64,000 nucleotides of DNA from Candidatus Nomurabacteria bacterium (GCA_020631855.1 JACKGU010000002.1:89188-153187), one strand, 5' to 3'. Positions 289-42,448 are shown, counted from the stretch's first letter. Program-made: numbers and translations. Notes: a model not told the origin generated them from the sequence alone.

Positions 289-410
289 TATAATTTCGTT
301 ACTTAAAACTACTTGCGTGAGCTAGTAGGTATAGTTTACCCAACATGTTGGGCTTTGCGGTGCAAGGAATTACAGCAAACCATCTGTGTAAGCTGGCGGT
401 GGTAGATTAA
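289..410 (+). repeat. ~120-nt structured intergenic repeat, copy A
   Basis: Starts TAATTTCGTTACTYAAA. Contains the GTAGTTTACCCAACATGTTGGG palindrome and an internal direct duplication ACCTRCGYAAGCTRG. Aligns to copies at 16722, 41255, 42243 and 42359. Confidence 0.7.
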
Positions 411-429
411 AGTATGCGTGTGTGGGTAT

Positions 430-438
430 GGGGGGGGG
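430..438. repeat. G9 homopolymer tract
   Basis: Nine consecutive G in an AT-rich intergenic region just before a 13-bp stem hairpin at 443-470. Confidence 0.8.
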
Positions 439-442
439 CGGT

Positions 443-470
443 TGAGGTTGGGGCCGTGGCCCCAACCTCA
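443..470 (-). terminator. Strong hairpin downstream of the hsp20 3' end (no clear U-tract)
   Basis: TGAGGTTGGGGCC/GGCCCCAACCTCA perfect 13-bp inverted repeat lying 3' of the minus-strand gene that ends at 493. Confidence 0.4.
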
Positions 471-492
471 GAATTCTTGGCTAAACCAAACA

Positions 493-933
493 CTAAGATT
501 TCTTTATAGCAATCTTTTTTGGTTGTTCCTCCTCCTTTTTATTGAATGATACTGTCATTACTCCGTTCTTACATACTGCTTCGGGATCGTTTTTAAGATC
601 TACATTGCTTGGTACCGAAACTCTGTACGAAAAGTTAGAGGTAGCTTTTTTGTAATACTTTTTAGATTTATCTTCTGTCTTCGACTCTCCTCTGATCCAT
701 AGTACGTTTTTGTCCAAAGTAACCTCTACTTCTTCGGGATTTATACCCGGTACCGCGGCTTCTACGTATACTTTTTTATCGTCTTCGTAAATAGATACGC
801 CGGACGCTGCTGTGAAATCTTCATCCCAAATTGAGGGAAACTTTGATGTTGAAAGATCCCAAAATGAGCTGGGAACTAAATTTAAGGTCATATTTGCCTC
901 CTTGGAAAATATATACTTATCACTTTTATACAA
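493..933 (-). CDS. Hsp20/alpha-crystallin family small heat-shock protein
   Basis: 146 aa. C-terminal alpha-crystallin domain pattern (VSVPSNVDLKNDPEAVCKNGVMTVSF). Confidence 0.8.
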   Translation of the reverse strand: MYKSDKYIFSKEANMTLNLVPSSFWDLSTSKFPSIWDEDFTAASGVSIYEDDKKVYVEAAVPGINPEEVEVTLDKNVLWIRGESKTEDKSKKYYKKATSNFSYRVSVPSNVDLKNDPEAVCKNGVMTVSFNKKEEEQPKKIAIKKS

Positions 934-982
934 CGAGTGCTAATTGTCTGTCAAGTTTTGAGTAGGCAAATTTCGGATGTGC

Positions 983-988
983 TATTAT
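983..988 (+). promoter_or_regulatory. -10-like TATTAT 7 nt upstream of the tgt ATG (leaderless-type promoter)
   Basis: TATTAT-caacaac-ATG with no Shine-Dalgarno. The same arrangement recurs at 11 or more other genes. Confidence 0.4.
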
Positions 989-995
989 CAACAAC

Positions 996-2093
996 ATGAA
1001 GGAGCTTGAAATCAAAAGAAAAAGCTATAAAACTCCTATATATTTACCGGACGCTACCCTCGGAGTAGTTAGGGGGCTGGATTCAAAAGATCTTCTTGGT
1101 GCAGGAGTTAAAGGAGTTGTAGTTAATACATATCATCTTCACCATCGCCCTGGGCTAGAACATCTTTCCGAGGCCGGCGGGATTAAAGCATTTATGGGCT
1201 TTGATGGTTTGGTAGCATCAGATTCAGGTGGTTGGCAAATTTTTTCTCTAATACACAGACATGGATTGCCAGGAAAAATTTCAGACGAGGGCGTGAAATT
1301 TGCAGATAAAGACGGTGGCAAGAAAATGAAGTTGTTTACACCAGAGGATTCGATAAAAATGCAGTTTGAATTAAAGTCGGATATTGTGGTGTGTCTTGAT
1401 GATTTCACACCGCCGGATGCTGATCGTGTAACGATAGAAAAGTCTGTAAATAGGACTGTTTTGTGGGCTCAAAGAAGTAAGATCGAATACGAACGGCAGT
1501 TGAATATACGAGGCATAGAGCGTGCAAATGCCCCGGTGTTGATGGCAGTAGTTCAAGGAGGATACGATAAATCTTTAAGATTGCAATGTTGCAATGATCT
1601 TTCATCCATAGGGTTTGATATGTACGGTTTTGGCGGTTACGTAGTGAATGAAGATGGGCTGGACCTCGAAATATCTGAATATTTAGCTTCTATTATACCT
1701 TCAGGCGCGTACAAATTTGCTCTTGGGGTGGGAACGCCCTGGCAAATTGCTATGTGCTATAAATTCGGTTGGGATATATTTGATTGCACTTTGCCAACAA
1801 GAGATGCACGGCATGGAAGGCTCTATGTATATACAGGAGACTATTCAAACCCTTCAGATTTACTGACTAAGGGCTTGCATTCTCACATTTCTATAACTAG
1901 TGGAAAATATTTTAAGGACCATTTTCCTATTAGCGATAGCTGCGATTGTTTAACATGTTCGAATTACACCAGATCTTACCTGCACCACCTTTTTAAGGTT
2001 AAAGATGTGTCCGCTTACAGACTGGCAACAATTCACAATCTTCGTACGTACACTCGGCTGATAGAGGCTTTGGTAGCATCGGATATTAGATAG
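996..2093 (+). CDS. tgt: Queuine/tRNA-guanine transglycosylase
   Basis: 365 aa. TGT-family Zn motif CDCLTCSNYTRSYLHHL (CxCxxC...H) followed by the IHNLRTYTRL region that matches E. coli Tgt. Confidence 0.85.
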   Translation: MKELEIKRKSYKTPIYLPDATLGVVRGLDSKDLLGAGVKGVVVNTYHLHHRPGLEHLSEAGGIKAFMGFDGLVASDSGGWQIFSLIHRHGLPGKISDEGVKFADKDGGKKMKLFTPEDSIKMQFELKSDIVVCLDDFTPPDADRVTIEKSVNRTVLWAQRSKIEYERQLNIRGIERANAPVLMAVVQGGYDKSLRLQCCNDLSSIGFDMYGFGGYVVNEDGLDLEISEYLASIIPSGAYKFALGVGTPWQIAMCYKFGWDIFDCTLPTRDARHGRLYVYTGDYSNPSDLLTKGLHSHISITSGKYFKDHFPISDSCDCLTCSNYTRSYLHHLFKVKDVSAYRLATIHNLRTYTRLIEALVASDIR

Positions 2094-2136
2094 TTTAGTG
2101 ATTTAGTATCTTGTTTTTTATGGTTTATGTCGTTGG

Positions 2137-2160
2137 GGCCCCGCGTAGCGGGGCCTTTAC
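2137..2160 (+). terminator. GC-rich hairpin terminator after tgt
   Basis: GGCCCCGC-GTAG-GCGGGGCC followed by TTTACC. Confidence 0.5.
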
Positions 2161-2288
2161 CTTCAAAAGCGAGCTTTGGGGGCCTCAACCCGAAGCATCC
2201 CCCTCCACCACTCTTTAGTAGGTCGGCTTTGCCAGACTTTTACGCCCAGTGTTTCGCGCCGATCGCCCTAAGAGCAGTAACGGTACAA

Positions 2289-2486
2289 TTAGTAGTCATC
2301 GTCATCGCTGTACAGGCCTTCGTCCATATCATCGTCAGGTTCGTCCAATTCGCCGGATTCTATCATATCGTCGTACACCCTTTGATACAGTTCCCAATCC
2401 ATGTCACTTGCATCTTCAGCGGGAACCCATGATGCGTCTCTTAACAAATTTTTTCTGATTTGTTCAGGAGTTAACACAAGTATCAC
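2289..2486 (-). CDS. Small acidic hypothetical protein (65 aa)
   Basis: ORF with a strongly acidic C-terminus (DEPDDDMDEGLYSDDDDY). Followed by an unusually GC-rich ~160-nt segment at 2127-2288. Confidence 0.3.
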   Translation of the reverse strand: MILVLTPEQIRKNLLRDASWVPAEDASDMDWELYQRVYDDMIESGELDEPDDDMDEGLYSDDDDY

Positions 2487-2648
2487 CCCCTCTGAAAGTC
2501 AGTAATTCTTTTTGATTTATAAAAGTATTACAAAGCATTTATTATTTGATCCTACCGTCTTCCCTGATTCTATATTCAGGCTTGATTGTAGAAAATTGCC
2601 TTAAAAGGCACATTTCTTTGGTAATTTTTGCATTAAAAGTTAACTAAA

Positions 2649-3974: not shown

Positions 3975-4033
3975 GTTTTGGATTATAGCAGTTTTTACTT
4001 TACAGTGTCATTTTTGTACTTTATTATTTATTT

Positions 4034-5083: not shown

Positions 5084-5084
5084 T

Positions 5085-5618: not shown

Positions 5619-5687
5619 TTTTTTGAGTTGTGTGTTTTAGCAGATCTACATCCTTCTTAACATAGATCTGTGCCGGCAGTGTAAATT

Positions 5688-6270: not shown

Positions 6271-6438
6271 TTATCTTTTTTTTGTTGCTACTTTTGCTTT
6301 TGCTGTTGTTTTTTTAACAACCTTCTTTACTGCTTTTTTAACAGTCTTTTTTGCAGCTACTTTCTTTACTGCTTTTTTAACAGTCTTTTTTGCAACTGGT
6401 TTTTTTGCTACTTTCTTTACAGTCTTTTTTACTGGCAC
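6271..6438 (-). CDS. Lysine/alanine-rich histone H1-like / HU-tail-like small basic protein (55 aa, absent from the ORF track)
   Basis: Minus-strand frame: GGAGGTGA-ttatt-GTG start. Translation VPVKKTVKKVAKKPVAKKTVKKAVKKVAAKKTVKKAVKKVVKKTTAKAKVATKKR, stop TAA. It is built from 39-nt tandem repeats. The + ORF 6217..6459 is its shadow. Confidence 0.6.
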   Translation of the reverse strand: MPVKKTVKKVAKKPVAKKTVKKAVKKVAAKKTVKKAVKKVVKKTTAKAKVATKKR

Positions 6439-16646: not shown

Positions 16647-16721
16647 TCTTAGGGCTTGCAGACTGTTAAACACCGCCCTGTTCGGGCACTTTTAAGGATA
16701 AACCTGTTTTGTACCTGTAAC

Positions 16722-16840
16722 TTCTTTACTTAAAACTTACGTGTGTAAGCTAGTAAATGTAGTTTTCCCAACATGTTAGACTCCGCAACGTAAAATAATT
16801 ACAGCAAACCACCTGCGTAAGCTAGCGGTGGTTGATATTC
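16722..16840 (+). repeat. ~120-nt structured intergenic repeat, copy B
   Basis: CTTACGTGTGTAAGCTAG...TTCCCAACATGTTAGA...CCACCTGCGTAAGCTAGCGGTGG. Same architecture as copies A, C, D and E. Confidence 0.7.
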
Positions 16841-16935
16841 TAAATGTGTGCTATAATGATTATTGCGCTCGTGCTAAATAGATTTGAGAACTTTAGTATC
16901 TAGACAAGTAAGTTTAGATTTACCTCCGGTCCGTT

Positions 16936-25170: not shown

Positions 25171-25200
25171 GTGGCTGGGCATTAGAGAACAAGTTCGAAC
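25171..25200 (+). repeat. tRNA-Gln 3'-end-like att repeat (c)
   Basis: GTGGCTGGGCATTAGAGAACAAGTTCGAAC. 29/30 identical to copy d. Shares TGGCTGGG and TTCGAAC with the tRNA-Gln antisense. Confidence 0.55.
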
Positions 25201-25212
25201 TTAAGTTTTGTT

Positions 25213-25884
25213 TTAGTGTTTCTGCTTTTCAAGTAGATATTTGGCTCCGGCGGCAACTGCTTCGTCCAAAGAACTCCAGATTTTCGACCCAAATAACTCT
25301 CTCAAAGGTTTCTCGTTAGGTTTTCCTCCTTGCTCGGGATTTGAGAAAAATGTTAAGGACTCTTTCAATAATTCATATCTTTCTTTTCCGAGAGTTTCTA
25401 AAAGTTCAGGATAGTAATAGTAAAACATAAAATGGTTTAGTTCGTGTTTTGCAGTACCAAGTTGTGGCATCAGAAATTTATAATTTGCAAAAAAATACCT
25501 ATTCTCATAACTGTATGGAAATATGTTATTGGTCGTCAGATATGCTGTAATAGTTTCAAATGGAAATGGTTTTTTGTACAGGAACTCCAGAGAATATATT
25601 ATGGAGTCTCCTACATTTTCCCACGAATCCTGTAGCCTTTTTATGCCTTTTTCTATATTATCCGGATCATTTTCATAGATATTTTTTAAATGATTGTACA
25701 CTTGTTCATAAACAGCTTCCGCGTTTTCTGCATTTATTAAAATTTCTTGAAGCTTAAGATCGAGTTTTTCAAGCAATTTGCTTTTCGGGCCATCTCTTCC
25801 ATGTTTAAACGCCTTGAAGGTATATACAAAATCAACATAAGTTCGAGCATCCTTTTCTAGTGAGTACTTTACTAATAGTTTCAT
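25213..25884 (-). CDS. Hypothetical protein
   Basis: 223-aa ORF. -10 TATAAT 12 nt upstream. A C15 tract abuts its -35 region. Confidence 0.4.
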   Translation of the reverse strand: MKLLVKYSLEKDARTYVDFVYTFKAFKHGRDGPKSKLLEKLDLKLQEILINAENAEAVYEQVYNHLKNIYENDPDNIEKGIKRLQDSWENVGDSIIYSLEFLYKKPFPFETITAYLTTNNIFPYSYENRYFFANYKFLMPQLGTAKHELNHFMFYYYYPELLETLGKERYELLKESLTFFSNPEQGGKPNEKPLRELFGSKIWSSLDEAVAAGAKYLLEKQKH

Positions 25885-26458: not shown

Positions 26459-26459
26459 T

Positions 26460-27233: not shown

Positions 27234-27263
27234 CTGGCTGGGCATTATAGAACAAGTTCGAAC
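27234..27263 (+). repeat. tRNA-Gln 3'-end-like att repeat (d)
   Basis: CTGGCTGGGCATTATAGAACAAGTTCGAAC. A sense-oriented GTTCGAATCCCT piece lies at 27176-27189. Confidence 0.55.
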
Positions 27264-27313
27264 TGCTGTATTGGTTTAGTTTCATTGTTTTATCCTTTTA
27301 GTATAATGCTTTT

Positions 27314-29224: not shown

Positions 29225-29245
29225 CCTGGCTGGAAGCCTGGCACA
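29225..29245 (+). repeat. Degenerate tRNA-Gln 3'-end-like att repeat (e), left boundary of the integrated element
   Basis: TCCTGGCTGGAAGCCTGGCAC, with AGTTCGAATTCCCTGATGGCCC at 29169-29190 (compare tRNA-Gln GGTTCGAATCCCTGTCCCCC). Confidence 0.4.
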
Positions 29246-29313
29246 CATACAGAATGGCTAATTGGCTTGATTTAATAAATGCCCCAGAGCTAGTTTATGC
29301 TTATGCCGAAAGC

Positions 29314-31026
29314 CTACTTGTTAAATAGTATCTTCTTTGAAAGAATAAAAACTTCGTCAAACCTCTTTTTAAGGAAATCATTACGAGGCTCTACTTCCCC
29401 AAATTTCAATGCAAGTAAAAAATGCTTCATAGGTTTATATTTGAATTCATTTCTCATAAGGCGATTAACAATTAAATCTCCAAACGAATACTCTGTATTA
29501 GTATAGGCTTCCATCATTTCAGTCTCTTCTGCGCTTAATATCGTTAATGATTCAACGTTTTTACCATTAAGATATTTATTATTTTCAATTAGTGGCAATA
29601 TCTCTTCAATCCAAATTAAGTCTGCTTGTGGGAAAGGGTTTATAGTTACTATTATTGGAACAAATGCCTTTATGTCTTTAGATTCAACTCCCTCTAATCT
29701 AAACTCTTTTCTTTTAAAGTCTTTTATACTTCTATCAATTTGCTTAACACTATTTAATACAATTTTCTCTAAATCTTTTCTGTAGCCTTCCAGGTCTCCG
29801 TTTATTGCGGTGTCTACCATTTTTAATTTTGAAGTGTTTATTTCAGCAAAAAAAGCAACATTTTTATATACAATTATAATATCTGATGTTTTTTTATGAC
29901 TTTTTCCATATGTTAATTCATTAAAAACCTTATATTCGTTATCATTACCCAACATCCTTTGGAACAAATTCTGTTCATACTCTTCGAAAAGTTCTCCATA
30001 GAATCGTGCAAGTCTATATCTTTCACTTTTTTCTAAAGAATCCCAAATGTCCCAAAATATCCCAGAAGAAATTCTTTCTTTTACAAAGCGAACACTTGTT
30101 GGCATATATACATCTTTACTTATCTTTATTAAAGGTTTTTGCCTAAGAGTTATGAAGTCATAAATCTTATTAGATGAGTCTAAAGAGTTGGATAATGTCA
30201 GTTTGTTAAGATATTTTATAGCCTTATATTTTGAATATTTGAGCTCGTTAAAATATACATTTTTGTTTATCTCAAAGTTATTCAAATCAATTTTGTCCTT
30301 ATAAATATTTACGTTTGCATAGTGGGCCAATAATGAAAAACCTAAAACATAGGCTTCTTCTAAGGTGTGATTCTTTGCTTTCTTGTATAGGGATTCTAAA
30401 TCTATATAATTTTCAGACTTTATAGCTCTGTCGCTTTTCGCAATATTAAAAAGTATTTCATAGTTTCTTGTAAATAAATATCTAAACTGCTCTGTAGAAT
30501 TAAAATATGCATTCCGAATAACTTCTTTTAATAGTGCATCTAATTGCAAGCGCCTATTGGGATTATCCATGTTTTTGTCGCTTTCATATTCTCTATTTAG
30601 CAGGTCACCGCAAGGGATGACACATTTTTTAAGGTATAAATCAAAGTTAGCTGTGTCGTTTAATTTCTTCTTAGCATATGGATTGCCGTGTTCCAATGTA
30701 AGTTTAATTAGGTGAAGTAATTGCTGTTCGAAGAAGAGAAATCTATCTGGGCTTGATTTGAAAACCTTTAATATTTTGCTTTTATCCTGTTCATTGTGAA
30801 ATAGTTCGTTTATTAAACCGTGTTGTAGCTCTCTATTCATATGTCCATGATTTTCCAACACATTTCCTAATTTACATGTTGCAGCTAATACTTCTCGTTT
30901 ATTAAGAGATTTAATTGTTTTTATAACCTCTTGCTCTGTGATTTCCTCGTTAAATATATCTCTATATGGCATCATAATCGCAAAGCCGTCACTGAGTGTA
31001 TAGTTTTTGTTGTTACTTAGAGGCAT
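29314..31026 (-). CDS. Large hypothetical protein (570 aa) co-transcribed downstream of the LexA-like gene
   Basis: Overlaps the lexA-like stop by 14 nt. No recognisable catalytic motif. Confidence 0.5.
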   Translation of the reverse strand: MPLSNNKNYTLSDGFAIMMPYRDIFNEEITEQEVIKTIKSLNKREVLAATCKLGNVLENHGHMNRELQHGLINELFHNEQDKSKILKVFKSSPDRFLFFEQQLLHLIKLTLEHGNPYAKKKLNDTANFDLYLKKCVIPCGDLLNREYESDKNMDNPNRRLQLDALLKEVIRNAYFNSTEQFRYLFTRNYEILFNIAKSDRAIKSENYIDLESLYKKAKNHTLEEAYVLGFSLLAHYANVNIYKDKIDLNNFEINKNVYFNELKYSKYKAIKYLNKLTLSNSLDSSNKIYDFITLRQKPLIKISKDVYMPTSVRFVKERISSGIFWDIWDSLEKSERYRLARFYGELFEEYEQNLFQRMLGNDNEYKVFNELTYGKSHKKTSDIIIVYKNVAFFAEINTSKLKMVDTAINGDLEGYRKDLEKIVLNSVKQIDRSIKDFKRKEFRLEGVESKDIKAFVPIIVTINPFPQADLIWIEEILPLIENNKYLNGKNVESLTILSAEETEMMEAYTNTEYSFGDLIVNRLMRNEFKYKPMKHFLLALKFGEVEPRNDFLKKRFDEVFILSKKILFNK

Positions 31027-31633
31027 GCCTTAGAAGTCCCAGAAATTTTCCTCTAATTTCTAGTTCCTTGGGATAAATATTGTTTAGTTCTGGATTTCTT
31101 GGTTCCAGTCTTATCTCACCCCTTTGTTTGTAAAATCTCTTAAGTGTTGCCCCGTTTTCTGTAATGGCTACAACGGTTTCCCCATTTTCTGCTGTATTTT
31201 GATGTTTTACTAACACAATATCTCCATCAGCAATACCATCATCAATCATACTGTTTCCAGATACTTTTAAGGCATAACACATCTCCGGTCTTCTAGGTAA
31301 CATAGTGGAAGGAACATCTATCGGCTCTGGAATCTCAACTGGTTCAATACCTGGACCCGCAGAGATAGTTCCTAGTAATGGTATTTTTATGAGTTCACTA
31401 CCTGTATTAAGCAATTTAATGCCTCTATTCAATGTAGTTTTTTTTATGTAACCTTTTTCTTCCAAAGCATCTAAATATTGAGCCACAGAGGAATCTGATT
31501 TGTAACCAAATTGTTCCGCTATTTCCTTATATGTGGGGCAAAATCCATGTTTAACAAAATGTTTTTCGAGGAAATCTAAAATATCTTTTTGCTTTGGAGT
31601 TAGAGGCAATTTTTCTTGACCTTTGTAATCCAT
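31013..31633 (-). CDS. lexA: LexA-type repressor (N-terminal winged-HTH plus C-terminal S24 peptidase Ser-Lys dyad)
   Basis: 206 aa. GNSMIDDGIADGDIVLV (catalytic Ser) and ATLKRFYKQRGEIRLEPRNPE (Lys), collinear with E. coli LexA. A TACTCGTA-TAA-TACTCGTA direct repeat and TATTAT lie 6 nt upstream of the ATG. Confidence 0.7.
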   Translation of the reverse strand: MDYKGQEKLPLTPKQKDILDFLEKHFVKHGFCPTYKEIAEQFGYKSDSSVAQYLDALEEKGYIKKTTLNRGIKLLNTGSELIKIPLLGTISAGPGIEPVEIPEPIDVPSTMLPRRPEMCYALKVSGNSMIDDGIADGDIVLVKHQNTAENGETVVAITENGATLKRFYKQRGEIRLEPRNPELNNIYPKELEIRGKFLGLLRHASK

Positions 31634-31744
31634 ACTCGTATAATACTCGTAATTAGTCCAACAGTCAAATGGACAAAAAAGGCAACAGACTTTCTTGCCC
31701 GTTGCCCTTCTTACGTACTTTAAGTTTATTAGTTAAGCAGATAT

Positions 31745-32011
31745 ATGGCAAGAGTATATGCGGAAAGGCATGTTATGGCAAAACAAATACACGTTACGCA
31801 TAACAAAGAAACCGGAAGGTGGCAAACCAGAGATGCCGGGTCGAAAGACGTTAATTCATCTCATAGAACAAAGGATTTAGCAGTCGAAAGAGCAGTTCGT
31901 GATGCAAAACAAACTCGCTCTGAGGTATTTATCCATAATAAAGATGGAAAGATATCTGATAGGGATAGTTATGGTAATGACCCTAGAAGTGTCAAAGACA
32001 GGGTTCATTAA
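31745..32011 (+). CDS. DUF2188-like small protein
   Basis: GRWQ ... IHNKDGKISDRDSYGNDP matches the DUF2188 pattern. Divergent from lexA. Confidence 0.5.
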   Translation: MARVYAERHVMAKQIHVTHNKETGRWQTRDAGSKDVNSSHRTKDLAVERAVRDAKQTRSEVFIHNKDGKISDRDSYGNDPRSVKDRVH

Positions 32012-32098
32012 TTAGTTTCTTTTGACTGTTGGCTAATTTCTATTCAGAATAGAGTTCATATGCTTATTTATAAAATTATATGATGTATTATAAAAACT

Positions 32099-33031
32099 AT
32101 GCGAGAAAATATTAAACTCATATCCCTTTTTAGTGGGTGTGGGGGCACAGATTTAGGATTTGAAGGTGGTTTTACTTTTAATTCAAAAAAATATGAAAAA
32201 TTACCTTACGATTTAGTTTGGGCAAATGAGATAAATAGTAAAGCCTGTATTACTTTTAAGGAAAACCTTAAAAAGGATATAGTCTGTGATGATATATGGA
32301 ATGTTGATTTAGATACACTACCCGATGCAGATATAGTTACTGGTGGTTTTCCATGCCAAGACTTTAGTGTTGCCGGATTACGTAAAGGATTTAACTCTAA
32401 AAGAGGCCTTTTATATTTGGCAATGCTTAATGTTGTAAATAAAGTTAAGCCAAGAGTTTTTGTTGCTGAGAATGTTAAGGGTTTGTTATCCATGGACAAA
32501 GGATGTGCTATTCAGAAGATAGTTTCAGATTTTTCACAAGCTGGTTCTGGCTATAAAGTCACAACACACCTATTAAAAGCCCCTGATTATGGGATTTCTC
32601 AAACAAGAGAGCGTGTTTTAATCGTAGGGGTAAGGTCTGATATTAATATGAATTTTGAACCTCCAGTACCAACTACATTAGATACACCTGTTCCTGTTTC
32701 AGATATATTAAGAGATTTGGAAGACCTAGCTGAGGGAGACATACCTAATCATTATTGGTCAAAAGCGAAACTATATCCAGGTAGACAAGGAAACATTACA
32801 ATAGACCCGAGTAAACCGGGCCCAACGATGAGAGCCGAACATCATGGGAACATAGAATTCCACTATAATAAGGGTAGAAGGTTAAGTGCACGTGAAGCTG
32901 CTAGGATACAGTCTTTTCCCGATGAATTTATATTCTATAATTCAACTTCTGATGCCTATCGCCAGATAGGTAATGCAGTACCCCCTGTATTAGCCTGGCA
33001 TATTGCAAAAACATTACTCCCATTTTTTTAA
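32099..33031 (+). CDS. DNA (cytosine-5)-methyltransferase
   Basis: 310 aa. Motif I FSGCGG, motif IV GFPCQDFS, ENV, C-terminal QIGNAVPP. Confidence 0.9.
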   Translation: MRENIKLISLFSGCGGTDLGFEGGFTFNSKKYEKLPYDLVWANEINSKACITFKENLKKDIVCDDIWNVDLDTLPDADIVTGGFPCQDFSVAGLRKGFNSKRGLLYLAMLNVVNKVKPRVFVAENVKGLLSMDKGCAIQKIVSDFSQAGSGYKVTTHLLKAPDYGISQTRERVLIVGVRSDINMNFEPPVPTTLDTPVPVSDILRDLEDLAEGDIPNHYWSKAKLYPGRQGNITIDPSKPGPTMRAEHHGNIEFHYNKGRRLSAREAARIQSFPDEFIFYNSTSDAYRQIGNAVPPVLAWHIAKTLLPFF

Positions 33032-33088
33032 GAATAGTGCTTAGATTCTTTTGATGTTAGACTTGTAACAGTAGGACATTTTACTGTT

Positions 33089-34201
33089 ATGGCTAATTTA
33101 AGAACATCTTTAAGAGAATTAAGCTTCATCTATGGGCTAATTGCCCATGATTTTTCTGTGCCCAAATTTAAGGACTTCTGTAGTACCCTAGCTGATAATG
33201 GTATTGAACATGGCTTAGAATCTAAAGATTCAGTTTTTTATAGCAAAGTTGTTTTTGACCAAATTGTAAAAAATGGTATACGACTAGGAATATTTGTAAG
33301 AGATAATTTGAAAATAACTAAAATAGATACTCTTAACTGGACTGGAAATGATACTCAATCAGATACTCCTTACGATGTAATCGTTAACAATATTCCAATT
33401 TCACTTAAAGAGGACAGTTTTATCTTAGAAAATATGGGCTTATATAAATTACTTTCTCTATTAACTGAAAACACTTATAAAAGAGGCGAGGTACACATTT
33501 TCAAGAAATTTGCCCCAAGAGAGTATGAAGAATGGTTTGATGTTGCTTGGCACAGTATGTTCTATAAAATAAGGAGACATGGTCCTTGGGTATATAAAGG
33601 TAAAGGATACACATCTACAATAAAAGAACAGGATAATAAAATAGTATTTATCTATAAATCACCCGAAAAGACACTGAGTTGCAGTCTTCCCTTCAAGTCG
33701 TACGTCTCTTTAGATGAGTTTGAAAAAGAAACAAATTCAATTCTTAGAGAAAAAGTTTTTTCAAAATGGATTTCTAGTATTGGGGCATATGTAGGGGAAT
33801 ATAAGGTTTATAAGAATATTTGTTCTACGAAGGCGGGTGAGGAATTGACCAAATTTATACATAAAAACATTAAGGTTGAATCCTTTTCTAGAATTTTTAG
33901 AATTTTGGAAACACCTTATTATTATGCAAAAGTTACAAATAATAGTATGGAATTATATAAAGTTCCAGGGAAACAAGATTTTAAGAATAACTTTGAAATT
34001 ATGGCATTTGAATATTCAGTGCCCTCATCACAATTAAACCTATTAACTACGATAAAAAACATTAAACTAGGCACCGAAATAACTTTTAGAAATGAATTAC
34101 GTTTTTCACATGGTCAGTTTAATGGTACTCCAGAAGCAAAATTATACTACACAAAAGACTCAAGCTTAGAAGCAATATACGAATTAGTCGCTACTCAATA
34201 A
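33089..34201 (+). CDS. Hypothetical protein, candidate cognate restriction endonuclease
   Basis: 370-aa ORF 57 nt downstream of the MTase on the same strand. No detectable motif. Called by position only. Confidence 0.3.
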   Translation: MANLRTSLRELSFIYGLIAHDFSVPKFKDFCSTLADNGIEHGLESKDSVFYSKVVFDQIVKNGIRLGIFVRDNLKITKIDTLNWTGNDTQSDTPYDVIVNNIPISLKEDSFILENMGLYKLLSLLTENTYKRGEVHIFKKFAPREYEEWFDVAWHSMFYKIRRHGPWVYKGKGYTSTIKEQDNKIVFIYKSPEKTLSCSLPFKSYVSLDEFEKETNSILREKVFSKWISSIGAYVGEYKVYKNICSTKAGEELTKFIHKNIKVESFSRIFRILETPYYYAKVTNNSMELYKVPGKQDFKNNFEIMAFEYSVPSSQLNLLTTIKNIKLGTEITFRNELRFSHGQFNGTPEAKLYYTKDSSLEAIYELVATQ

Positions 34202-34236
34202 TATTTCCTGATATAATCAAATAGTAATTAAACACA

Positions 34237-34322
34237 GCTTGGCAGCTTTACTTAAACATGCTTAAAAAAGCAATGGACCCATGAAGGGGCAACCTTTCCA
34301 TAGGGTCTATTGCTGCCAAGCT
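34237..34322. repeat. Nested inverted repeat (multi-layer hairpin)
   Basis: Outer CAGCTTGGCAGC/GCTGCCAAGCTG, inner CAATGGACCC/GGGTCTATTG, innermost GAAGG/CCTTT. Lies 3' of the putative REase gene. Confidence 0.6.
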
Positions 34323-34546
34323 GTGGATACCGGAAGGTTGTCCCTTTATGTTTGGAATAAAAAGCATTAAAACGAAATATTTTGACTTCATTTTCTATTG
34401 GCTATATCAAATGCCACTTTATACTCCAAAACTCAATATAACGTGTTCTGGGACTTCTGGTAGCTATATTTTTTCTACTCTGTCTCAGATATTTAGCGTG
34501 GTTGAGCCAATAAGTATAAATTTCTATAAATTAAGGAATAAAGAAA

Positions 34547-34867
34547 ATGAATAAAAAAGAACAAATTGCATGCCCTAAGTGTGGTCAGTTTAGAGTTGTG
34601 ACTAAAGATACTGCTTCTGCAGCGTTGTTCGGCATTGGTTGTATGTACTTAACGCTTGTCCCAATTATAGGGATAGTTTTAAGTTTGATTGGTTTAGGTA
34701 TTTTTGGTTTGGTTATTGGTTTTGCATTAGGTATTGGTTTATTAATCTCTGCATTAGTTAAGAAAACAAAAGGAAAAGCCACATTTACCTGTCTTAATTG
34801 TGGTTATAAGTGGGAACCTGTACTAGATAAAGCAAATAATTCCAAGGGGAATAAAAATAAACAATAA
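34547..34867 (+). CDS. Zinc-ribbon membrane protein
   Basis: CPKCG ... two TM helices ... CLNCG. Confidence 0.45.
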   Translation: MNKKEQIACPKCGQFRVVTKDTASAALFGIGCMYLTLVPIIGIVLSLIGLGIFGLVIGFALGIGLLISALVKKTKGKATFTCLNCGYKWEPVLDKANNSKGNKNKQ

Positions 34868-35210
34868 TAAAGTTAGGCAACCTGAATTTTTAGCTAACTT
34901 ATCTGCACTGATAGTGGTTCTATTGTAAACTTTGTTATAGATAGCTTTTTTTGGATTGGTAACAATCCCCATTCCTCTTGGGACTCTAACTTTGGAACGA
35001 ACCATTCTTTTTACAGATGTTCTTGCTGATAGTCTTCTTTTTAATGAGGGTGTTCTAACGCCAAATTTCATATCTAAATTATATACATATATGTTTGAAA
35101 TGTCAGAAAAATTGTGTGTGAAATGAGAGAAAATGAAGGGGTTATTTTTTGTATAAAGTGGCAGAAATGACAAAAAAACAGGGGGTACAAATTAATAAAA
35201 CCTTAGAGAA

Positions 35211-35882
35211 ATGAGAGAAAGTAAGTGGTTTGTTTTCATCATATCCTTGTACCTAAATATTGTAGTAACAATAAATACCTTAATGTCACAGCACATTTTT
35301 AAGATATCGTACTTTAATTACATGAAACATGTAAATGAAGATACAAAACATAATATATTAGATGAAGTTTTTTCCTTTGAAGATAAAACAAAGAACGATA
35401 TATATTTCGCAGATGACCGAAGATTTAAAATATATTCTGGTTTTACTAAGCTTTATCATGCTTTAGCTCATGCCATTTTGGCTGATAATACTCTTACTGC
35501 CAGAGAGATTAAGGTATTACTTCTATATATTAGGGTCGGATATGGTTGCCAAGTTAGGGATGAGTACGGTGTGAAGAAACACGCTAGAAGCGTATATTTT
35601 TGTCCAAAAGAAGTATCAAAAATTTTAAATTATAGAACAAATGATGTTTCAAAAGTTTTTAAGTCTTTGTTTGATAAAGGTTGGTTTGATTTTTTGTATT
35701 ACAAAGAAACAGGCAGAACAAAAATTCACCCACAAATAGTTGATAATGTACTAGATGTAAAAACAGGTGCAGGTTGGGATGAAACGTTTAATATTGAACT
35801 TAGAAATGTAATTTCTAGAAATCTAGGGTTCAATCTGGTACCTGTTATCTATTCAAAAGACCCTTTCAAGTTACTCAAATAG
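35211..35882 (+). CDS. Hypothetical protein (possible winged-helix/replication-like, weak)
   Basis: 223-aa ORF in the integrated element. The probable start is an internal Met (MKHVNEDTK). Confidence 0.35.
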   Translation: MRESKWFVFIISLYLNIVVTINTLMSQHIFKISYFNYMKHVNEDTKHNILDEVFSFEDKTKNDIYFADDRRFKIYSGFTKLYHALAHAILADNTLTAREIKVLLLYIRVGYGCQVRDEYGVKKHARSVYFCPKEVSKILNYRTNDVSKVFKSLFDKGWFDFLYYKETGRTKIHPQIVDNVLDVKTGAGWDETFNIELRNVISRNLGFNLVPVIYSKDPFKLLK

Positions 35883-36150
35883 TTTTAATACATATACCAT
35901 TAAAAAATATGATATTCCCTAATACATGATTTATGCAGGTTTTGCAGACATATTTACATTTATTAAGTATCAGTTAACGAGAATTACGCAATATTTTACT
36001 TGAAACGTGTAATTTTTAAGATTTATTTGCTTTAAAAACAGCCAAAAAGCATGGTTAGTATATAAAAAAGATAAGTAAAATAGTTTATGTATAGATAGTA
36101 AGATGAAGAGTTGTAAAAATGTAAAAACATGGAAGGTATAATGTGTTTAG

Positions 36151-37098
36151 ATGAAAAATGTAGATGAAATTAAATCAAGGAAACCAACATGGTCACTTTC
36201 TGAGGTAATGATAAAGTCTGGATTGTTTAGTGAAAAAGGTGTTACTTGGTATAAGGATAAACCAGAAACTGATAGAGATGTATTAATTAGAAGCTATTGG
36301 GATTTAGTATACAAATCTGGCATGTTAGATTTCCTTATAAAACGTGAGAGAGAAGTTTTAGGTATACCAAACAATCTACGTGCTTTAAGAAGAAAGTTTC
36401 CTTTAGTGGCTTATAGAACTGATATAGGTGACCCAAACGAAGTAAATCTTGAACAAGGTATTGATAACTATCATGGTTATTATGGAAGAGACCCTAAGCT
36501 AGTAGCATCAATTGATGATAGTGTTAATAGAATTTTGGATGATTCAAAACTTCCGCCAATGTATTTCAAGGTAGTGCTATTTTTATTACTACGGGGGCAA
36601 CTAATTAAAGATGGTGAACTTTTTTTCTATACACGGTTAATGGACTCTATAGCTTTAAAAGAGGACTATGATAAACGTATCTATAACCATTTTACTCAAA
36701 ATGAATTTATTCAATATGCCGGATTTTACTTAATGGCTATTTCAACAAAACTTACAAAACAAGATTTTAGAGAAAGAATGTCCAATTTGGAAAAAGTAAT
36801 ACCTAATTTTAATAGAAAATATCGTCCAATTAGAAAATGGAATACTTACTACAAAATAATTAAGGTTATATTGAAAAGTTATAATATTGAACAAAAAACA
36901 AATCATGGGGAATCGGATAGCATGAGTGAAGGTTTAATGCATACGAGTAAATCTTTGATTTATGATTTATGTAATAAAGATTTAACTAAAGAACAGGAAC
37001 AAAGAGAAGCCTATAAATTGCGAAAAGACATTGAACGCCTCAAAAAAGAATACCCATTCCTAGTCGAAATGTTCCCTCACCTACAACAAAAAGCTTAA
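36151..37098 (+). CDS. Hypothetical protein
   Basis: 315-aa ORF, no recognisable motif. Confidence 0.4.
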   Translation: MKNVDEIKSRKPTWSLSEVMIKSGLFSEKGVTWYKDKPETDRDVLIRSYWDLVYKSGMLDFLIKREREVLGIPNNLRALRRKFPLVAYRTDIGDPNEVNLEQGIDNYHGYYGRDPKLVASIDDSVNRILDDSKLPPMYFKVVLFLLLRGQLIKDGELFFYTRLMDSIALKEDYDKRIYNHFTQNEFIQYAGFYLMAISTKLTKQDFRERMSNLEKVIPNFNRKYRPIRKWNTYYKIIKVILKSYNIEQKTNHGESDSMSEGLMHTSKSLIYDLCNKDLTKEQEQREAYKLRKDIERLKKEYPFLVEMFPHLQQKA

Positions 37099-37136
37099 TG
37101 TCACAACCCTAAATTTTTAAGCTGTAAGCTGATGGC

Positions 37137-37400
37137 ATGAATATGAAATCATGCCTAACAAATGAAGACCCTAATATCTTTTCAACAAGTGATTTGCATT
37201 TAGCAATTTCCTTATCTTTTTTTCACAATATTGTTGGATTAGATAATTCATCACCAAACAGAATCAAATTTCTTTTTGATTACTCTGCATCTCTAGAAAA
37301 AACAATTGAAGATTATTGGAATGGAAAACTCCTAGTAGACCCAAAAGGTTTTAGTAATAAATTATCCGAGTTCAAAACTCGTATTCGAACAGGTCTTTGA
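37137..37400 (+). CDS. Hypothetical small protein
   Basis: 87-aa ORF. Confidence 0.3.
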   Translation: MNMKSCLTNEDPNIFSTSDLHLAISLSFFHNIVGLDNSSPNRIKFLFDYSASLEKTIEDYWNGKLLVDPKGFSNKLSEFKTRIRTGL

Positions 37401-37401
37401 A

Positions 37402-37569
37402 ATGGAGCTAAGTAGTAATTTAGTTAACGAATTGAAACAGATTCTCAAAGAAGAGTTTGGATTGGACTTAACATCCGAGCAAATTTTGGCTCTTGGTTCA
37501 AACCTAACCCAACTTTTTGAGGCTTTGTTAGAGATTGTTACTAAGAAAGGAAGTGATTCAAACATGTGA
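37402..37569 (+). CDS. Small helical protein (55 aa) immediately upstream of the integrase; candidate recombination directionality factor
   Basis: ATG at 37402; MELSSNLVNELKQILKEEFGLDLTSEQILALGSNLTQLFEALLEIVTKKGSDSNM. Not in the track (<60 aa). Confidence 0.3.
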   Translation: MELSSNLVNELKQILKEEFGLDLTSEQILALGSNLTQLFEALLEIVTKKGSDSNM

Positions 37570-37646
37570 AACCCAAGTCAAATGCTACTTACAAAGTAGC
37601 CCATGCGTTGCATTATGTAATAAATTGATATGAAAGTAATATTGAA

Positions 37647-39308
37647 ATGAAAAAATACGAAAATAAAACAGCTGTTATCCTCTGCCGAGTAAGTTCAAAA
37701 GAACAAGAAAAAGAGGGTTATTCTCTACCTTCCCAAGAAAAATTGTTAAAAAGTTATAGCGATAAAGAGAAGCTAAATGTTGTTAAGACTTATACGTTCT
37801 CTGAATCTGCTAGAGCCTCTTCTGAAAGGGTGTATTTTAAGCAAATGATGGAGTATGTAAAAAAGCAAAACATACACGTTATTGTTTGTGAAAAAGTAGA
37901 CCGCGCAACTAGAAATTTAAAAGATACTCAGGTTTTATACGATTGGCTAGAGGGCAACCCAGATAGACAAATACACTCTGTAAAAGATTCAATTGTTCTA
38001 CATAAAAACTCTAAATCTCAGGAAAAGCTAAATTGGGATATTAGAGTAATTTTTGCAAAGAACTATGTAGATAACCTATCTGAGGAAGTTAAAAAAGGTC
38101 AAATTGAAAAGCTAGAGAAAGGTTGGTTACCTACAAGTCCTCCTTTAGGTTATAAGACAATTGGTGAGGAAGGTAAAAGAATTCATATTCCAGATGAAGC
38201 CACAAAGCACTTTGCTAAAAGTCTTTTCGAACTATATGGAAGTGGTACCTATACATTATCTCAATTAGTGGATTTATTGTTTGAAGAGGGCCTTAGAACA
38301 CCGACTGGTAAAAAATACTCAAAGAGTATGCTTTATAGATGTTTACAGAATCCTTTTTATATTGGTTACAACAGATGGAATGGAAATGATTTTCCAGGTA
38401 ATCAAGAAACATTTATTAGCCCATCTTTATATGAAACTGTTCAATCAAGACTAAAAAGAAATGGTTCTCAAAAATTCATTAAACATAACCACTTATTGCG
38501 TAGCATGGCTGTCTGTAAAGAATGTGGAGGAACAATTACATGGGAACTAAAGAAAGGAACTGTCTACGGCCATTGTGGTCGTAGGCAGGGCTGTTCCCAA
38601 ACAAAATGTGGTAAAGAACATGAATTTGAAGAAAAGATTATAAATGAGATGGAAAATCTAGTAATCAAGAATAAACGTGTCTTAGATTGGGTAAGCAAAG
38701 CTCTTAAAGAGAATCACAAAGATGAAATTAATGCCTACAACTACTCGGTTGAAGAATTAACTAAACAAGAAGAAAAAATAACAGAAAGACTTAGCCAAAT
38801 TTACGATGATAAGTTAGATGGCAAGATAGATGAGTCTTTTTATAACTTAAAAATGGAACAATACACCACTGAAAGAACTGAAATTCAAAAACAAAGGACA
38901 AGATTAGCAGATAGAAACACAAAGTATTATGAGATAGGTTCCCTAATATATGATATCGCTCAAAATGCGCCAAAGATTTATAAAGAGTGTAAAGATGTTG
39001 ATAAAAAGAGAAAAATTTTAGGAATAATCTTCAGAACTTTTCAACAAGAAAATGGCGAACTTGTAGAATTGCAGTTATCAAAGCCTTTTGAAACGCTCAA
39101 AAAAGCAGTAAGTATTACTAACAGTTCGAACTTGGTTAAAAATGAGGAGTTGCAAAAAGAGATTTTAGAACTCGGGGATTTTGTTGCTGTGGAAGCAAAT
39201 AAAGAGTCTTTTTCTGATGATTGTTCTCCATGGCTGGGGGACAGGGATTCGAACCCCAATTTTCGGGACCAAAACCCGACGTGCTACCCTTACACCATCC
39301 CCCAATGA
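37647..39308 (+). CDS. Large serine recombinase (integrase)
   Basis: 553 aa. N-terminal resolvase catalytic domain (AVILCRVSSKEQ), recombinase domain, zinc ribbon CKECGG...CGRRQGCSQTKCG, coiled coil. The last ~25 codons are antisense to tRNA-Gln. Confidence 0.85.
   Translation: MKKYENKTAVILCRVSSKEQEKEGYSLPSQEKLLKSYSDKEKLNVVKTYTFSESARASSERVYFKQMMEYVKKQNIHVIVCEKVDRATRNLKDTQVLYDWLEGNPDRQIHSVKDSIVLHKNSKSQEKLNWDIRVIFAKNYVDNLSEEVKKGQIEKLEKGWLPTSPPLGYKTIGEEGKRIHIPDEATKHFAKSLFELYGSGTYTLSQLVDLLFEEGLRTPTGKKYSKSMLYRCLQNPFYIGYNRWNGNDFPGNQETFISPSLYETVQSRLKRNGSQKFIKHNHLLRSMAVCKECGGTITWELKKGTVYGHCGRRQGCSQTKCGKEHEFEEKIINEMENLVIKNKRVLDWVSKALKENHKDEINAYNYSVEELTKQEEKITERLSQIYDDKLDGKIDESFYNLKMEQYTTERTEIQKQRTRLADRNTKYYEIGSLIYDIAQNAPKIYKECKDVDKKRKILGIIFRTFQQENGELVELQLSKPFETLKKAVSITNSSNLVKNEELQKEILELGDFVAVEANKESFSDDCSPWLGDRDSNPNFRDQNPTCYPYTIPQ
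39231..39304 (-). tRNA. tRNA-Gln (anticodon UUG)
   Basis: Sense: TGGGGGA-TG-GTG-TAAGGGTAG-CAC-G-TCGGG-TTTTGGT-CCCGA-AAAT-TGGGG-TTCGAAT-CCCTG-TCCCCCA-G-CCA. U1-A72 is typical of Gln. CCA is encoded. Confidence 0.85.
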
Positions 39309-39462
39309 ATACATAAATACCCGAATATTATAACATCAAGTTATTGTTTTTAGCTATAACAGTCATCTTTCGCCAGCCTCAAGTACTTTAAATGCAAATA
39401 TAGCCTCTTGGTAGTGCTTTCAGTACGGTGTAATTTCTCTCTGATCTGTGTAGAATATTTGT

Positions 39463-40449: not shown

Positions 40450-40491
40450 AATTTACTGCGTAATTTTTTTATTTAATGGTTGCGCAAAATT

Positions 40492-40568
40492 TGGTGGGCT
40501 CACCAGGGCTCGAACCTGGGACCTCTCGGATGTAAACCGAACGCTCTAACCAACTGAGCTATGAGCCC
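40492..40568 (-). tRNA. tRNA-Val (anticodon UAC)
   Basis: Sense: GGGCTCA-TA-GCTCAGTTGGTTAGAGC-G-TTCGG-TTTACAT-CCGAG-AGGTC-CCAGG-TTCGAGC-CCTGG-TGAGCCC-A-CCA. Confidence 0.9.
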
Positions 40569-40576
40569 GAACAATT

Positions 40577-40612
40577 AAAAAGGGCAGTTGGATGGGTTTG
40601 TATTTCGCCCTT
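40577..40612 (-). terminator. Rho-independent terminator of the gene ending at 40629
   Basis: On the minus strand: AAGGGC-(22-nt loop)-GCCCTT followed by TTTTTTAATT. Confidence 0.55.
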
Positions 40613-40628
40613 AAGCAACCAAATAGTA

Positions 40629-41240
40629 TCATATTTTTATATCTTCACAAACAATATTTTCCAGCCTATTACTAATAATATTGTCGCCGCCAATTTCTGC
40701 GAATCTTCTTGCAAGATAGTCACAATCAATTTTAACCTTTTTCATAATTTGAAGTATATCTTCACGGTCACGTTTGTATTTCTCTTTACCCCTAAATAAA
40801 ATTGCTTTAAACAAGATTAGATCCGCAGGATTAAGTATCGTAATTTCCAATTCCCCTAGCTGCGCTTTTAAGGCATGCTCTTGTGAAAGTTTTGTAAATT
40901 CAAAATTATAGCTTCTTCCAACTGAGTACACCTCCCCTCCTTCCACTACCTCAATATCTTTGTGAGCAAAAGGGAAAATTGAAGCCCCCTCAAAATTTTC
41001 TTTATCGTATGTAATTATGCTCCTGGGAAATAGTTCCAAGAACTTTTTAGTTTGAGTTCTATCTAAAATAAAGTCTCCGTCTGTGGGCTTTCTGTAGCCG
41101 GTAAGCAGTGATACCAGAGAGCCCGATGTAAGTGCATATTTTATGTTATTCGTATTCGCGATCTTAATAAAGTTTGCAAAATTATTTAGCTTTAATAGTT
41201 CGTTAATACAAAAAACTTTGAGCACCTTACTTTTTCGCAC
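40629..41240 (-). CDS. Nucleotidyltransferase-fold protein (hG[GS]...DxD)
   Basis: YALTSGSLVSLLTGYRKPTDGDFIL resembles the NTase motif. Low certainty. Confidence 0.4.
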   Translation of the reverse strand: MRKSKVLKVFCINELLKLNNFANFIKIANTNNIKYALTSGSLVSLLTGYRKPTDGDFILDRTQTKKFLELFPRSIITYDKENFEGASIFPFAHKDIEVVEGGEVYSVGRSYNFEFTKLSQEHALKAQLGELEITILNPADLILFKAILFRGKEKYKRDREDILQIMKKVKIDCDYLARRFAEIGGDNIISNRLENIVCEDIKI

Positions 41241-41254
41241 CCCTTTTACATTTA

Positions 41255-41372
41255 TAATTTAGTTACTCAACACTACCTGCATAAGCTAACCGATGTAGTT
41301 TACCCAACATGTTAGTCTTTGCACAGCAAAGATACTACGGCAAACCTCCTCCGTAAGCTGTTGAATGCTGGT
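41255..41372 (+). repeat. ~120-nt structured intergenic repeat, copy C
   Basis: TAATTTAGTTACTCAACACTACCTGCATAAGCTAACCGATGTAGTTTACCCAACATGTTAGT...CCTCCTCCGTAAGCTG. Confidence 0.7.
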
Positions 41373-41585
41373 TTTTGATTCGGGAAGGTCGTTTTAAGTT
41401 TAAGCGATTGAGTAGATATTGTTTTTGTAGAATAATCTGGGCGGACGTTTTCTGTCATTGTAAAAAGTATAGCAACTTTATCTTTAAGGGTATATGCCTA
41501 TTAAAGCACCCGACTCGAGCTTTTCTTAATTGAGGCGTGTTTTTGAAATTCTTGTAAGAATCCATAACTATGTGAGCAACTGTTC

Positions 41586-42218
41586 TTAAAGTGTTATTAC
41601 TAACTCTTGTTCTTCTAGTCTCACCTTACTTCTTTTTGCAGCCTCGTCCTCGCTTGATCTGAAACCGAGCGCGCAGCAAACTGAAGATTTTAAATTGTAG
41701 TCCTTAAGAGATAGTATCTCATCGACAGAATCCTTGTTAAATCCTTCCATGGGGCACGCATCAATCTTATTTTGTGCTGCCGCATCAAGAAGAAATCCTA
41801 GTGCTATATAGACCTGCCTCGAGGCCCAGGTCTGTACTTGTTCTGGGGACATTGATTCAATAGCTTTTAGCATTCCTGTTCTGTATCCTTCCAGGCTCTC
41901 TTCAGAAACTTTTCTAACTTCCGAAATCTTCCTTATGTAGTTGTCTACCATTTTTTCATTAATGTCTGTTCTGTAGCAAAGAACTACAAACATCGATGAC
42001 TCTGTTACCTGGGGCTGGTTATAGCAAGCTTCCCTAAGCTTCTCGAGAAGTTGAGCATCTTCAACTAAAATAAACTTGTAGGGCTGTAGACCGAACGAAG
42101 ATGGGGCAAGAATGAGAGTATTAATTAAAAGTTGCATTTGATCTGCAGTTAATTTTCTTGAAACATCAAATTTTTTTGTTGCGTATCTGTTTTTTAGATT
42201 ATTTATGTATTCTTCCAT
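41586..42218 (-). CDS. Nitroreductase family protein
   Basis: 210 aa. N-terminal RYATKKF ... APSSFGLQPYKFILV nitroreductase signature. Confidence 0.85.
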   Translation of the reverse strand: MEEYINNLKNRYATKKFDVSRKLTADQMQLLINTLILAPSSFGLQPYKFILVEDAQLLEKLREACYNQPQVTESSMFVVLCYRTDINEKMVDNYIRKISEVRKVSEESLEGYRTGMLKAIESMSPEQVQTWASRQVYIALGFLLDAAAQNKIDACPMEGFNKDSVDEILSLKDYNLKSSVCCALGFRSSEDEAAKRSKVRLEEQELVITL

Positions 42219-42242
42219 TACTATATATTATCTTATTTTTTA

Positions 42243-42358
42243 TAATTTCGTTACTCAAACCTACCTACGCAAACTGGCAGATGTAGTTTACCCAACATGT
42301 TGAGCTTTGCAGCGCAAAGAAATTACAGTAAGCCACCTGCGTAAGCTGGTGGTAGTTG
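42243..42358 (+). repeat. ~120-nt structured intergenic repeat, copy D (complete)
   Basis: TAATTTCGTTACTCAAACCTACCTACGCAAACTGGCAGATGTAGTTTACCCAACATGTTGAGCTTTGCAGCGCAAAGAAATTACAGTAAGCCACCTGCGTAAGCTGGTGGTAGTTGA. Confidence 0.75.
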
Positions 42359-42448
42359 ATAATTTCGTTACTCAAACCTACCTACGCAAGCTAGCAGATG
42401 TAGTTTACCCAACATGTTGGGTTTTGCAGCGTAAAGAAATTACAGCAG
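42359..42448 (+). repeat. ~120-nt repeat, copy E (tandem to D, 3'-truncated)
   Basis: Same 5' 90 nt as copy D. Lacks the terminal CCACCTGCGTAAGCTGG arm. Confidence 0.7.

Follow-up and report, generated by a model that had tools for sequence, protein, structure and literature searches.

The transposons of the IS200/IS605 family, for which IS608 of Helicobacter pylori and ISDra2 are the mechanistic models, carry subterminal imperfect palindromes in place of inverted ends, and they are excised strand-specifically as a single-stranded circle in which the abutted right and left ends keep the right cleavage motif (PMC3201880, PMC3597680). The lagging-strand template is the strand into which they insert, on the 3′ side of a fixed tetra- or pentanucleotide, and the bases 5′ of each hairpin foot read the cleavage motifs (PMC3201880, PMC3597680). 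The left end of IS608 has a second hairpin (PMC3201880), and its linkers are 19 and 10 nt long, the mode for the family being 15–16 and 8 nt (PMC3597680 for the family rule). Gene-less elements that come from such transposons are known as palindrome-associated transposable elements (PATEs), which are defined by four descriptive features, plus a targeting sequence of 4–5 nt and a longer distance at the 5′ side; the HqIRS families of Haloquadratum walsbyi are examples (PMC3119063), and gene-less ISGst relatives in Geobacillus stearothermophilus are also of the PATE type (PMC10055086). Here we compare with these systems a family of intergenic repeats found in a 64,000-nt stretch of DNA from a Candidatus Nomurabacteria bacterium (GCA_020631855.1 JACKGU010000002.1:89188-153187; the window in what follows). 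We propose that each copy, of 113–118 nt, is probably a non-autonomous “peel-and-paste” element of the IS200/IS605 type, that is, a PATE made of a left end and a right end alone.

The whole window was searched with an nhmmer profile built from five + strand copies, which can be aligned with each other over about 117 nt and which a repeat finder independently returns as the same five-member family. All five lie within about 5 nt of where a preliminary description of the window had placed them. That description also listed a possible partial sixth copy and held that every copy is on the + strand. The sixth copy is real, but it lies on the minus strand, so that the single orientation holds for five of the six. 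Beyond these six, every other site in the window has an E value above 0.01. The copies, with the extent and E value of each profile match, are as follows.

288..292, + strand: TTATA, the left-flank pentanucleotide of copy 1 and proposed target or transposon-adjacent motif, from the comparison of 14 junctions
293..409, + strand: copy 1, full length, between the convergent VKOR-like (+) and Hsp20 (-) genes (match 291-406, E 1.9e-35)
16720..16837, + strand: copy 2, full length, 118 nt, left flank CTGTA, neighbored by the NHL-repeat gene and the DEAD-box helicase gene, the true start of which is the ATG at 16963 (match 16718-16835, E 6.3e-33)
41257..~41380, + strand: copy 3, with degenerate right hairpin and right end, antisense to both of its neighbors, a 203-aa hypothetical gene and the nitroreductase gene, which are on the minus strand (match 41255-41371, E 6.2e-34)
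42245..42361, + strand: copy 4, the best preserved, 117 nt, in the divergent nitroreductase/ZIP region (match 42243-42359, E 1.7e-37)
42362..~42448, + strand: copy 5, head-to-tail with copy 4 in the same region, ending before the right hairpin (match 42360-42448, E 1.7e-28)
61215..61307, - strand: copy 6, old and degenerate, without left linker, the sole window copy on the opposite strand (match 61307-61215, E 1.7e-14, or 5.3e-16 with an improved profile)

The catalogue was extended to about 105 kb, namely the window with 10 kb on each side (84 kb) and a second locus, contig JACKGT010000005.1 of the same Candidatus Nomurabacteria organism (L092), which is also present in GCA_020427845.1. These contain 16 copies or fragments, about 1.6% of the DNA examined. 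All are intergenic, as had been claimed: none is inside a real gene, and a mechanical open reading frame (ORF) that overlaps copy 5, 42391..42885 (-), is absent from the called genes. The genes adjoining the window copies encode Hsp20, TGT, an NHL-repeat protein, a DEAD-box helicase, a nitroreductase, a ZIP transporter, and a dockerin protein. The gene contexts first described are right for copy 2, which precedes the helicase gene, and for copies 4 and 5, whereas copy 3 is outside the divergent region. A left-end-only fragment of the repeat was seen at L092 1019-1087, 170 nt beyond a tmRNA gene (tag AEDNSIAYAGVGAYAPAMALV) that adjoins smpB (L092 448-851).

The exact limits of the unit were set by aligning all the copies with their flanks. 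The unit runs from ATTTCGTTACT to GGTTGATA, and in 13–14 of the 14 left junctions, the five bases preceding it read T[T/G]ATA. From position −5 to −1, these are T (13/14), T or G (11 and 3), A (13/14), T (14/14), and A (14/14), and the flank is variable from position −7 outward. At the other side, TGATA terminates the unit in seven of the nine intact right ends listed, and the flank is variable from base +1, with no repeat of the left flank. No terminal inverted repeats were found, since the 5′ end, ATTTCGTTACT, does not match the reverse complement of the 3′ end, TATCAACCACC. Nor is there a target-site duplication at the copies, the left TTATA and the right TGATA being consistently different.

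Three independent head-to-tail tandems (copies 4 and 5; L092 18091/17977; L092 4820/4701) are informative about these limits. All three junctions read ...GTTGATA/ATTTCG..., where the slash marks the boundary between the copies, with no TTATA in between. Therefore, the second copy of a tandem uses the TGATA of the first copy in place of TTATA. The TTATA and TGATA junction sites would be the cleavage sites.

The internal direct duplication noticed earlier consists of two near-identical imperfect hairpins in direct orientation, CTACYTGC-GNRA-GCTAGYAG at unit positions 17–36 and CCACCTGC-GTAA-GCTGGTGG at positions 89–108. Each has a 5-bp stem, a T.T mismatch, and then GC-GNRA-GC, and the mismatch is kept in 14 of 15 left hairpins and in 13 of 13 right ones. 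The left linker has 16 nt and the right linker 8–9 nt. Between the hairpins there is a core in which an 8-bp stem, TGTAGTTT/AAATTACA, encloses the two small hairpins of the preliminary description; in the left end, a second hairpin comes after the left hairpin. The other elements of the preliminary description, that is, its consensus, the CCCAACATGTTGGG palindrome, and the CTTTGC-NNN-GCAAAG hairpin, are likewise present. The variant CTTTGC-ACA-GCAAAG, which had been called compensatory-looking, differs in the loop only and is therefore no compensatory change. With limits taken from the consensus structure, the parts of copy 4 are the following.

42245-42260, + strand: left linker
42261-42280, + strand: left hairpin
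42282-42289, + strand: first arm of the closing stem
42291-42304, + strand: first small hairpin
42305-42319, + strand: second small hairpin
42320-42327, + strand: second arm of the closing stem
42333-42352, + strand: right hairpin
42353-42361, + strand: right linker, ending in TGATA

The four bases 5′ of the hairpin feet are AAA[A/C] at the left and CAA[A/G] at the right. If TATA is drawn against AAA[A/C] and GATA against CAA[A/G], each combination gives two canonical pairs, and the single T-to-G difference between the putative cleavage motifs is matched by an A-to-C difference in the would-be guides, in a register that was picked post hoc.

The end architecture of the unit matches that of the IS200/IS605 elements and of their gene-less derivatives, and it is for this reason that we favor the PATE reading. 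The likeness to IS608 and ISDra2 comprises imperfect hairpins in a subterminal position on one strand, a fixed tetra- or pentanucleotide 5′ of the insertion, a right cleavage motif (putative in our case) that is encoded by the element and similar to the target, a second hairpin in the left end, and a strand bias of insertion. The linkers are asymmetric in the same sense, 16 and 8–9 nt in the repeat and 19 and 10 nt in IS608. The tandem junction is equivalent to the abutted right-end/left-end junction of the IS608 circle, which keeps the right cleavage site (PMC3201880). There are differences as well: IS608 carries tnpA and tnpB, whereas the repeat unit is without genes and too short for a transposase gene, and its guide/cleavage pairing is suggestive only.

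All four descriptive features of the PATEs are found in the repeat, and so are the targeting sequence and the longer 5′ distance. Like PATEs, the copies lack inverted ends and target duplications, have near-terminal palindromes that resemble each other, are preceded on the 5′ side by a 4–5-nt targeting sequence, have their palindrome farther from the terminus on the 5′ side than on the 3′ side, and span a wide sequence divergence. In the ISGst elements, the transposon-adjacent motif (TAM) and the transposon-encoded motif (TEM) are TTTAT and TTCAC (PMC10055086); the flank and end motifs of the repeat, differing at one or two positions, correspond to this pair. Unlike the known PATEs, the repeat resides in a bacterium of the Patescibacteria, or candidate phyla radiation (CPR), with a small genome. 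It also has its own motif pair, TTATA and TGATA, and a compact core, in which an 8-bp stem closes off two small hairpins. Its sequence is unrelated to any element of the plasmid and phage collections compared, and no parent insertion sequence (IS) or transposase was found for it in the ~105 kb examined.

The anatomy of the copies (boundaries, hairpins, linker asymmetry, and junctions), their strand bias, their intergenic spread, and their decay are seen directly in the alignments. From these we infer a Y1 enzyme and single-strand chemistry. In the pathway that we propose, a Y1 (HUH) transposase encoded at some other place in the genome would bind the top strand (the + strand of the window) at its two imperfect, nearly identical hairpins and would cut at the left after the flanking TTATA and at the right after the element’s own terminal TGATA. 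Occasional insertion after the TGATA of a resident copy would give rise to the head-to-tail tandems. Once inserted, the copies would be free of selection and would decay.

The orientation of the copies is a further line of evidence. In the 84 kb around the window, eight of nine copies are on the + strand, while all seven copies in L092 are on the - strand. The gene contexts are convergent, divergent, sense, and antisense, several copies being antisense to both neighbors. Measured along the + strand, the AT skew at third codon positions has a negative sign in the window and its flanks, for + genes as well as for - genes (−0.08 to −0.13), and a positive sign in L092, again for both (+0.13, +0.16). 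With tandem partners counted once, there are 13 sites, and at 12 of them, the top strand of the element is the T-rich strand (one-sided binomial p about 0.002; two regions sampled). Thus, the orientation of the copies follows the T-rich strand, not the neighboring genes. The GC skew at third positions, again along the + strand, is positive in five of the six gene sets of the window and flanks and mixed in L092. The GC skew of the whole window, which tracks gene direction, is uninformative. The strand that is rich in T and G has, in most bacteria, the leading-strand sequence and is the lagging-strand template. Hence, the T-rich strand would here be the lagging-strand template, the strand into which IS200/IS605 elements insert.

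The preliminary description regarded the repeats as a small-RNA gene family or a MITE/REP-like element, and of this, the mobile nature has stood. It is quite unlikely, in our judgment, that the copies are small-RNA genes or cis-acting structured RNAs, in which an RNA of about 110 nt with four hairpins would start from the TATAAT at the junction and act in trans or on the neighbors. The attraction of this idea is evident. TATAAT spans the left junctions (TTATA/AT), the consensus is highly structured and has GNRA-type loops, all copies are intergenic, and copy 2 is just upstream of the DEAD-box helicase gene, as copies 4 and 5 are of the ZIP gene. Folded as single-stranded DNA, the top strand of the family consensus reaches −23.8 kcal/mol (z −4.8, with none of 200 shuffles as good), and the bottom strand has a z of −3.2. 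When single copies are folded as RNA, neither strand does better than its shuffles (z +0.5 to −1.5). Neither is there a sign of selection on the pairs. Among 15 copies and 33 pairs, 84.5% of the cells are paired, and shuffling of the partners gives 83.9 ± 0.5% (89 of 500 shuffles reach the observed value), and the covariation score is 0.127 against 0.123 (150 of 500); an earlier test with 12 copies was similar (35/500 and 37/500). There is thus no covariation beyond column composition. A wobble test for the structured strand gave no signal either, G.T and A.C cells being about equal (35 and 38). In Rfam, no family matches the repeat: at the gathering threshold, two tRNAs are the only matches in the window, and permissive scans of three copies return only unrelated matches (E 0.27–8.7). 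At the loci scanned, those of copies 2, 3, and 4/5, no −35 partner, and so no two-hexamer promoter, and no intrinsic terminator were found. The indifference of the copies to the direction of their neighbors also speaks against RNA genes, as do the truncated or degenerate copies (copies 3, 5, and 6, L092 17977, and L092 1087). Pairwise identity is 71–93%, with a median of 81%, and tandem partners are among the most similar pairs. Since the consensus folds strongly while the copies are diverged or truncated without covariation, the pattern fits neutral decay, after insertion, of the copies of a structured founder, and does not fit RNA genes that are being maintained.

Another reading likens the repeat to the repetitive extragenic palindromic (REP) sequences and bacterial interspersed mosaic elements (BIMEs) of enterobacteria and pseudomonads. 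It would then be a domesticated repeat, both spread and maintained by a REP-associated tyrosine transposase (RAYT, or TnpA-REP), and would serve the host, for instance, in protecting mRNA 3′ ends or in binding nucleoid proteins. Here, too, there are mismatched imperfect hairpins of the Y1 type, in keeping with a common HUH/Y1 logic, and the copies are numerous, intergenic, and sometimes tandem (PMC3333891); in addition, five copies of our repeat begin 8–72 nt past the stop codon of a same-strand gene. However, REPs are single hairpins of 30–40 nt with a conserved GTAG 5′ to the foot, and they form inverse pairs in BIMEs (PMC3333891), whereas the repeat is a unit of 117 nt with two direct hairpins, conserved linkers and core, and tandems that are head-to-tail. 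Its hairpin feet are preceded by AAA[A/C] and CAA[A/G], not by GTAG, and its fixed flank and end pentamers, which REPs lack, contrast with the scattered cleavage between C and T by TnpA-REP. This makes a REP/BIME origin unlikely. A classical cut-and-paste miniature inverted-repeat transposable element (MITE), for example, one of the IS630/Tc1-like kind with a TA target, fits in size and intergenic location and in having TA at both boundaries, where TTATA and TGATA end. But neither end is an inverted copy of the other, a variable target duplication is absent, the TTATA at the left and the TGATA at the right are consistently different and hence not a duplication, and the tandem junctions have no shared TA between complete ends. 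Spread by recombination or duplication alone is at odds with copies in unrelated contexts on two contigs. We find both of these last options highly improbable. Integron attC sites, Helitron/IS91-type ends, and att sites of the 10-kb island described below were also tried and rejected on anatomy, as were tRNA-derived elements, ARAGORN and Rfam finding only two tRNAs.

A variant of the PATE reading gives the unit a function. Some PATEs carry the ω-RNA (right-end RNA, reRNA) scaffolds of TnpB or IscB (PMC10055086). Likewise, the part of the repeat near the right end is structured, and any transcript would exit through the right end into the flank. Thus, the copies might be guide-RNA PATEs, with a tiny ω-RNA-like scaffold and TnpB or IscB supplied in trans, transcription running from the junction TATAAT through the right end into the flanking DNA; or they might be a domesticated structural repeat oriented by replichore. 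Either would be a new class of RNA or of chromosome architecture in the Patescibacteria. In contrast to the known cases, there is no tnpB or iscB gene near the repeat and no Rfam match. Scaffolds of ω-RNA have roughly 100–150 nt or more, and by this general measure, the repeat unit is shorter than the known ones. We consider these functional variants very unlikely.

Returning to the simpler proposal, a gene-less IS200/IS605-type element, several points weigh against it. No gene for a Y1 transposase, TnpB, or RAYT was found in the ~105 kb examined, by Pfam calls and protein scans. No empty site or presence/absence polymorphism was seen, the other assemblies of the copy loci, all of one strain there, carrying the same copies (99.8–100% identical over the shared stretches). 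The family may have ceased to be active, its median identity being 81%. It is by the tandem junctions alone that TTATA can be separated from a part of the element. The pairing of guides and cleavage motifs was drawn post hoc and is suggestive at most, and replication direction was deduced from skew in just two regions, where GC skew is weak.

The window matches contig JACKGV010000006.1 of GCA_020631795.1 at 99.9–99.99%, and GCA_020427845.1 carries it too. Wide scans were seeded with an 18-nt core, TAGTTTWCCCAACATGTT. Against one genome per GTDB species, this core gave 10 single matches, all due to chance (nhmmer being run over the seeded core only). Of 50 matches in the JGI metagenomes, three contigs are real, all from the same species. 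Viral contigs, searched with two patterns, had nothing real, and blastn against plasmid and phage collections found no match to the repeat. The nearest homologue of the ZIP protein is 57% identical, and that of the Wzy_C protein 29–32%; accordingly, there is no related species in which orthologous loci could be compared. The repeat represents a sequence family that is new within an already known kind of element, a statement made without a search for earlier reports in the phylum.

Many independent short-read contigs end inside copies, seven of them inside copy 5. We also considered a break at a repeat for contig JAGQNY010000002.1 of GCA_020427845.1 (L093), which departs from L092 at 16790 and then runs into GH97 and 7TMR-DISM genes. 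This was rejected, as the divergence point is inside groEL (L092 15927..17579) and unrelated to the repeat; the contig looks like a chimeric one of a metagenome-assembled genome (MAG), joined at a conserved gene.

Some features beside the copies deserve mention. Directly right of copy 1, at 428-470, a run of nine Gs is followed by a GC-rich hairpin, GAGGTTGGGGCC-GT-GGCCCCAACCTC, which is downstream of the minus-strand hsp20 gene and is possibly its terminator. As to promoters, TTATA/AT forms TATAAT across the left junction, and the right end carries TTGATA, facing outwards, which matches the −35 hexamer at five of six positions. In copy 2, this TTGATA has AATGAT as its partner 17 nt downstream, both ahead of the helicase gene (16832-16860). 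Judging from these motifs, insertions might create hybrid promoters through the outward TTGATA. In the helicase itself (16963-18345), an N-terminal extension of about 120 residues, in which R, G, K, and S are abundant, precedes the helicase core.

Elsewhere in the window, a block of about 10 kb (29234-39226) is absent from two assemblies of the same strain, GCA_020631795.1 (L011) and L016. It adjoins a tRNA gene (39234-39304, -) and contains genes for a large serine recombinase (37647-39308), a LexA-like S24 repressor, a C5 DNA methylase, and a RepO-like protein, in addition to several ORFs without family. The block is probably a mobile element that has integrated here, or what remains of a small prophage. 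A direct repeat of 57 nt, whose two members share 81% identity, occurs at 25172-25228 and 27235-27291, intergenic and beside reductase genes. It includes GAACAAGTTCGAAC with a perfect 12-nt palindrome, AAGTTCGAACTT, and looks like a shared operator site. A 39-nt tandem repeat (3.2 copies, 84% matches) lies at 6309-6430. BLAST pieces of L084, L085, and L087 overlap at this array (6320-6431), which suggests that its length differs between assemblies.

What does the family mean for its host? It opens no new category of element. If our reading is right, a streamlined, host-dependent CPR bacterium gives about 1.6% of the DNA examined to the relic of a single-strand transposon, and the repeat points to a Y1 transposase, possibly with a TnpB system, that uses the motif pair TTATA and TGATA. 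Copies are found in the promoter regions of the DEAD-box helicase, ZIP transporter, and glycosyltransferase genes, and since their ends have −10-like (TATAAT) and −35-like (TTGATA) hexamers, they may alter expression. Short-read assemblies of this organism are broken by the repeat, a point to be kept in mind when the quality of its MAG assemblies is judged. Finally, in genomes with a weak GC skew, the direction of replication could be read cheaply from the strand-locked orientation of the copies.

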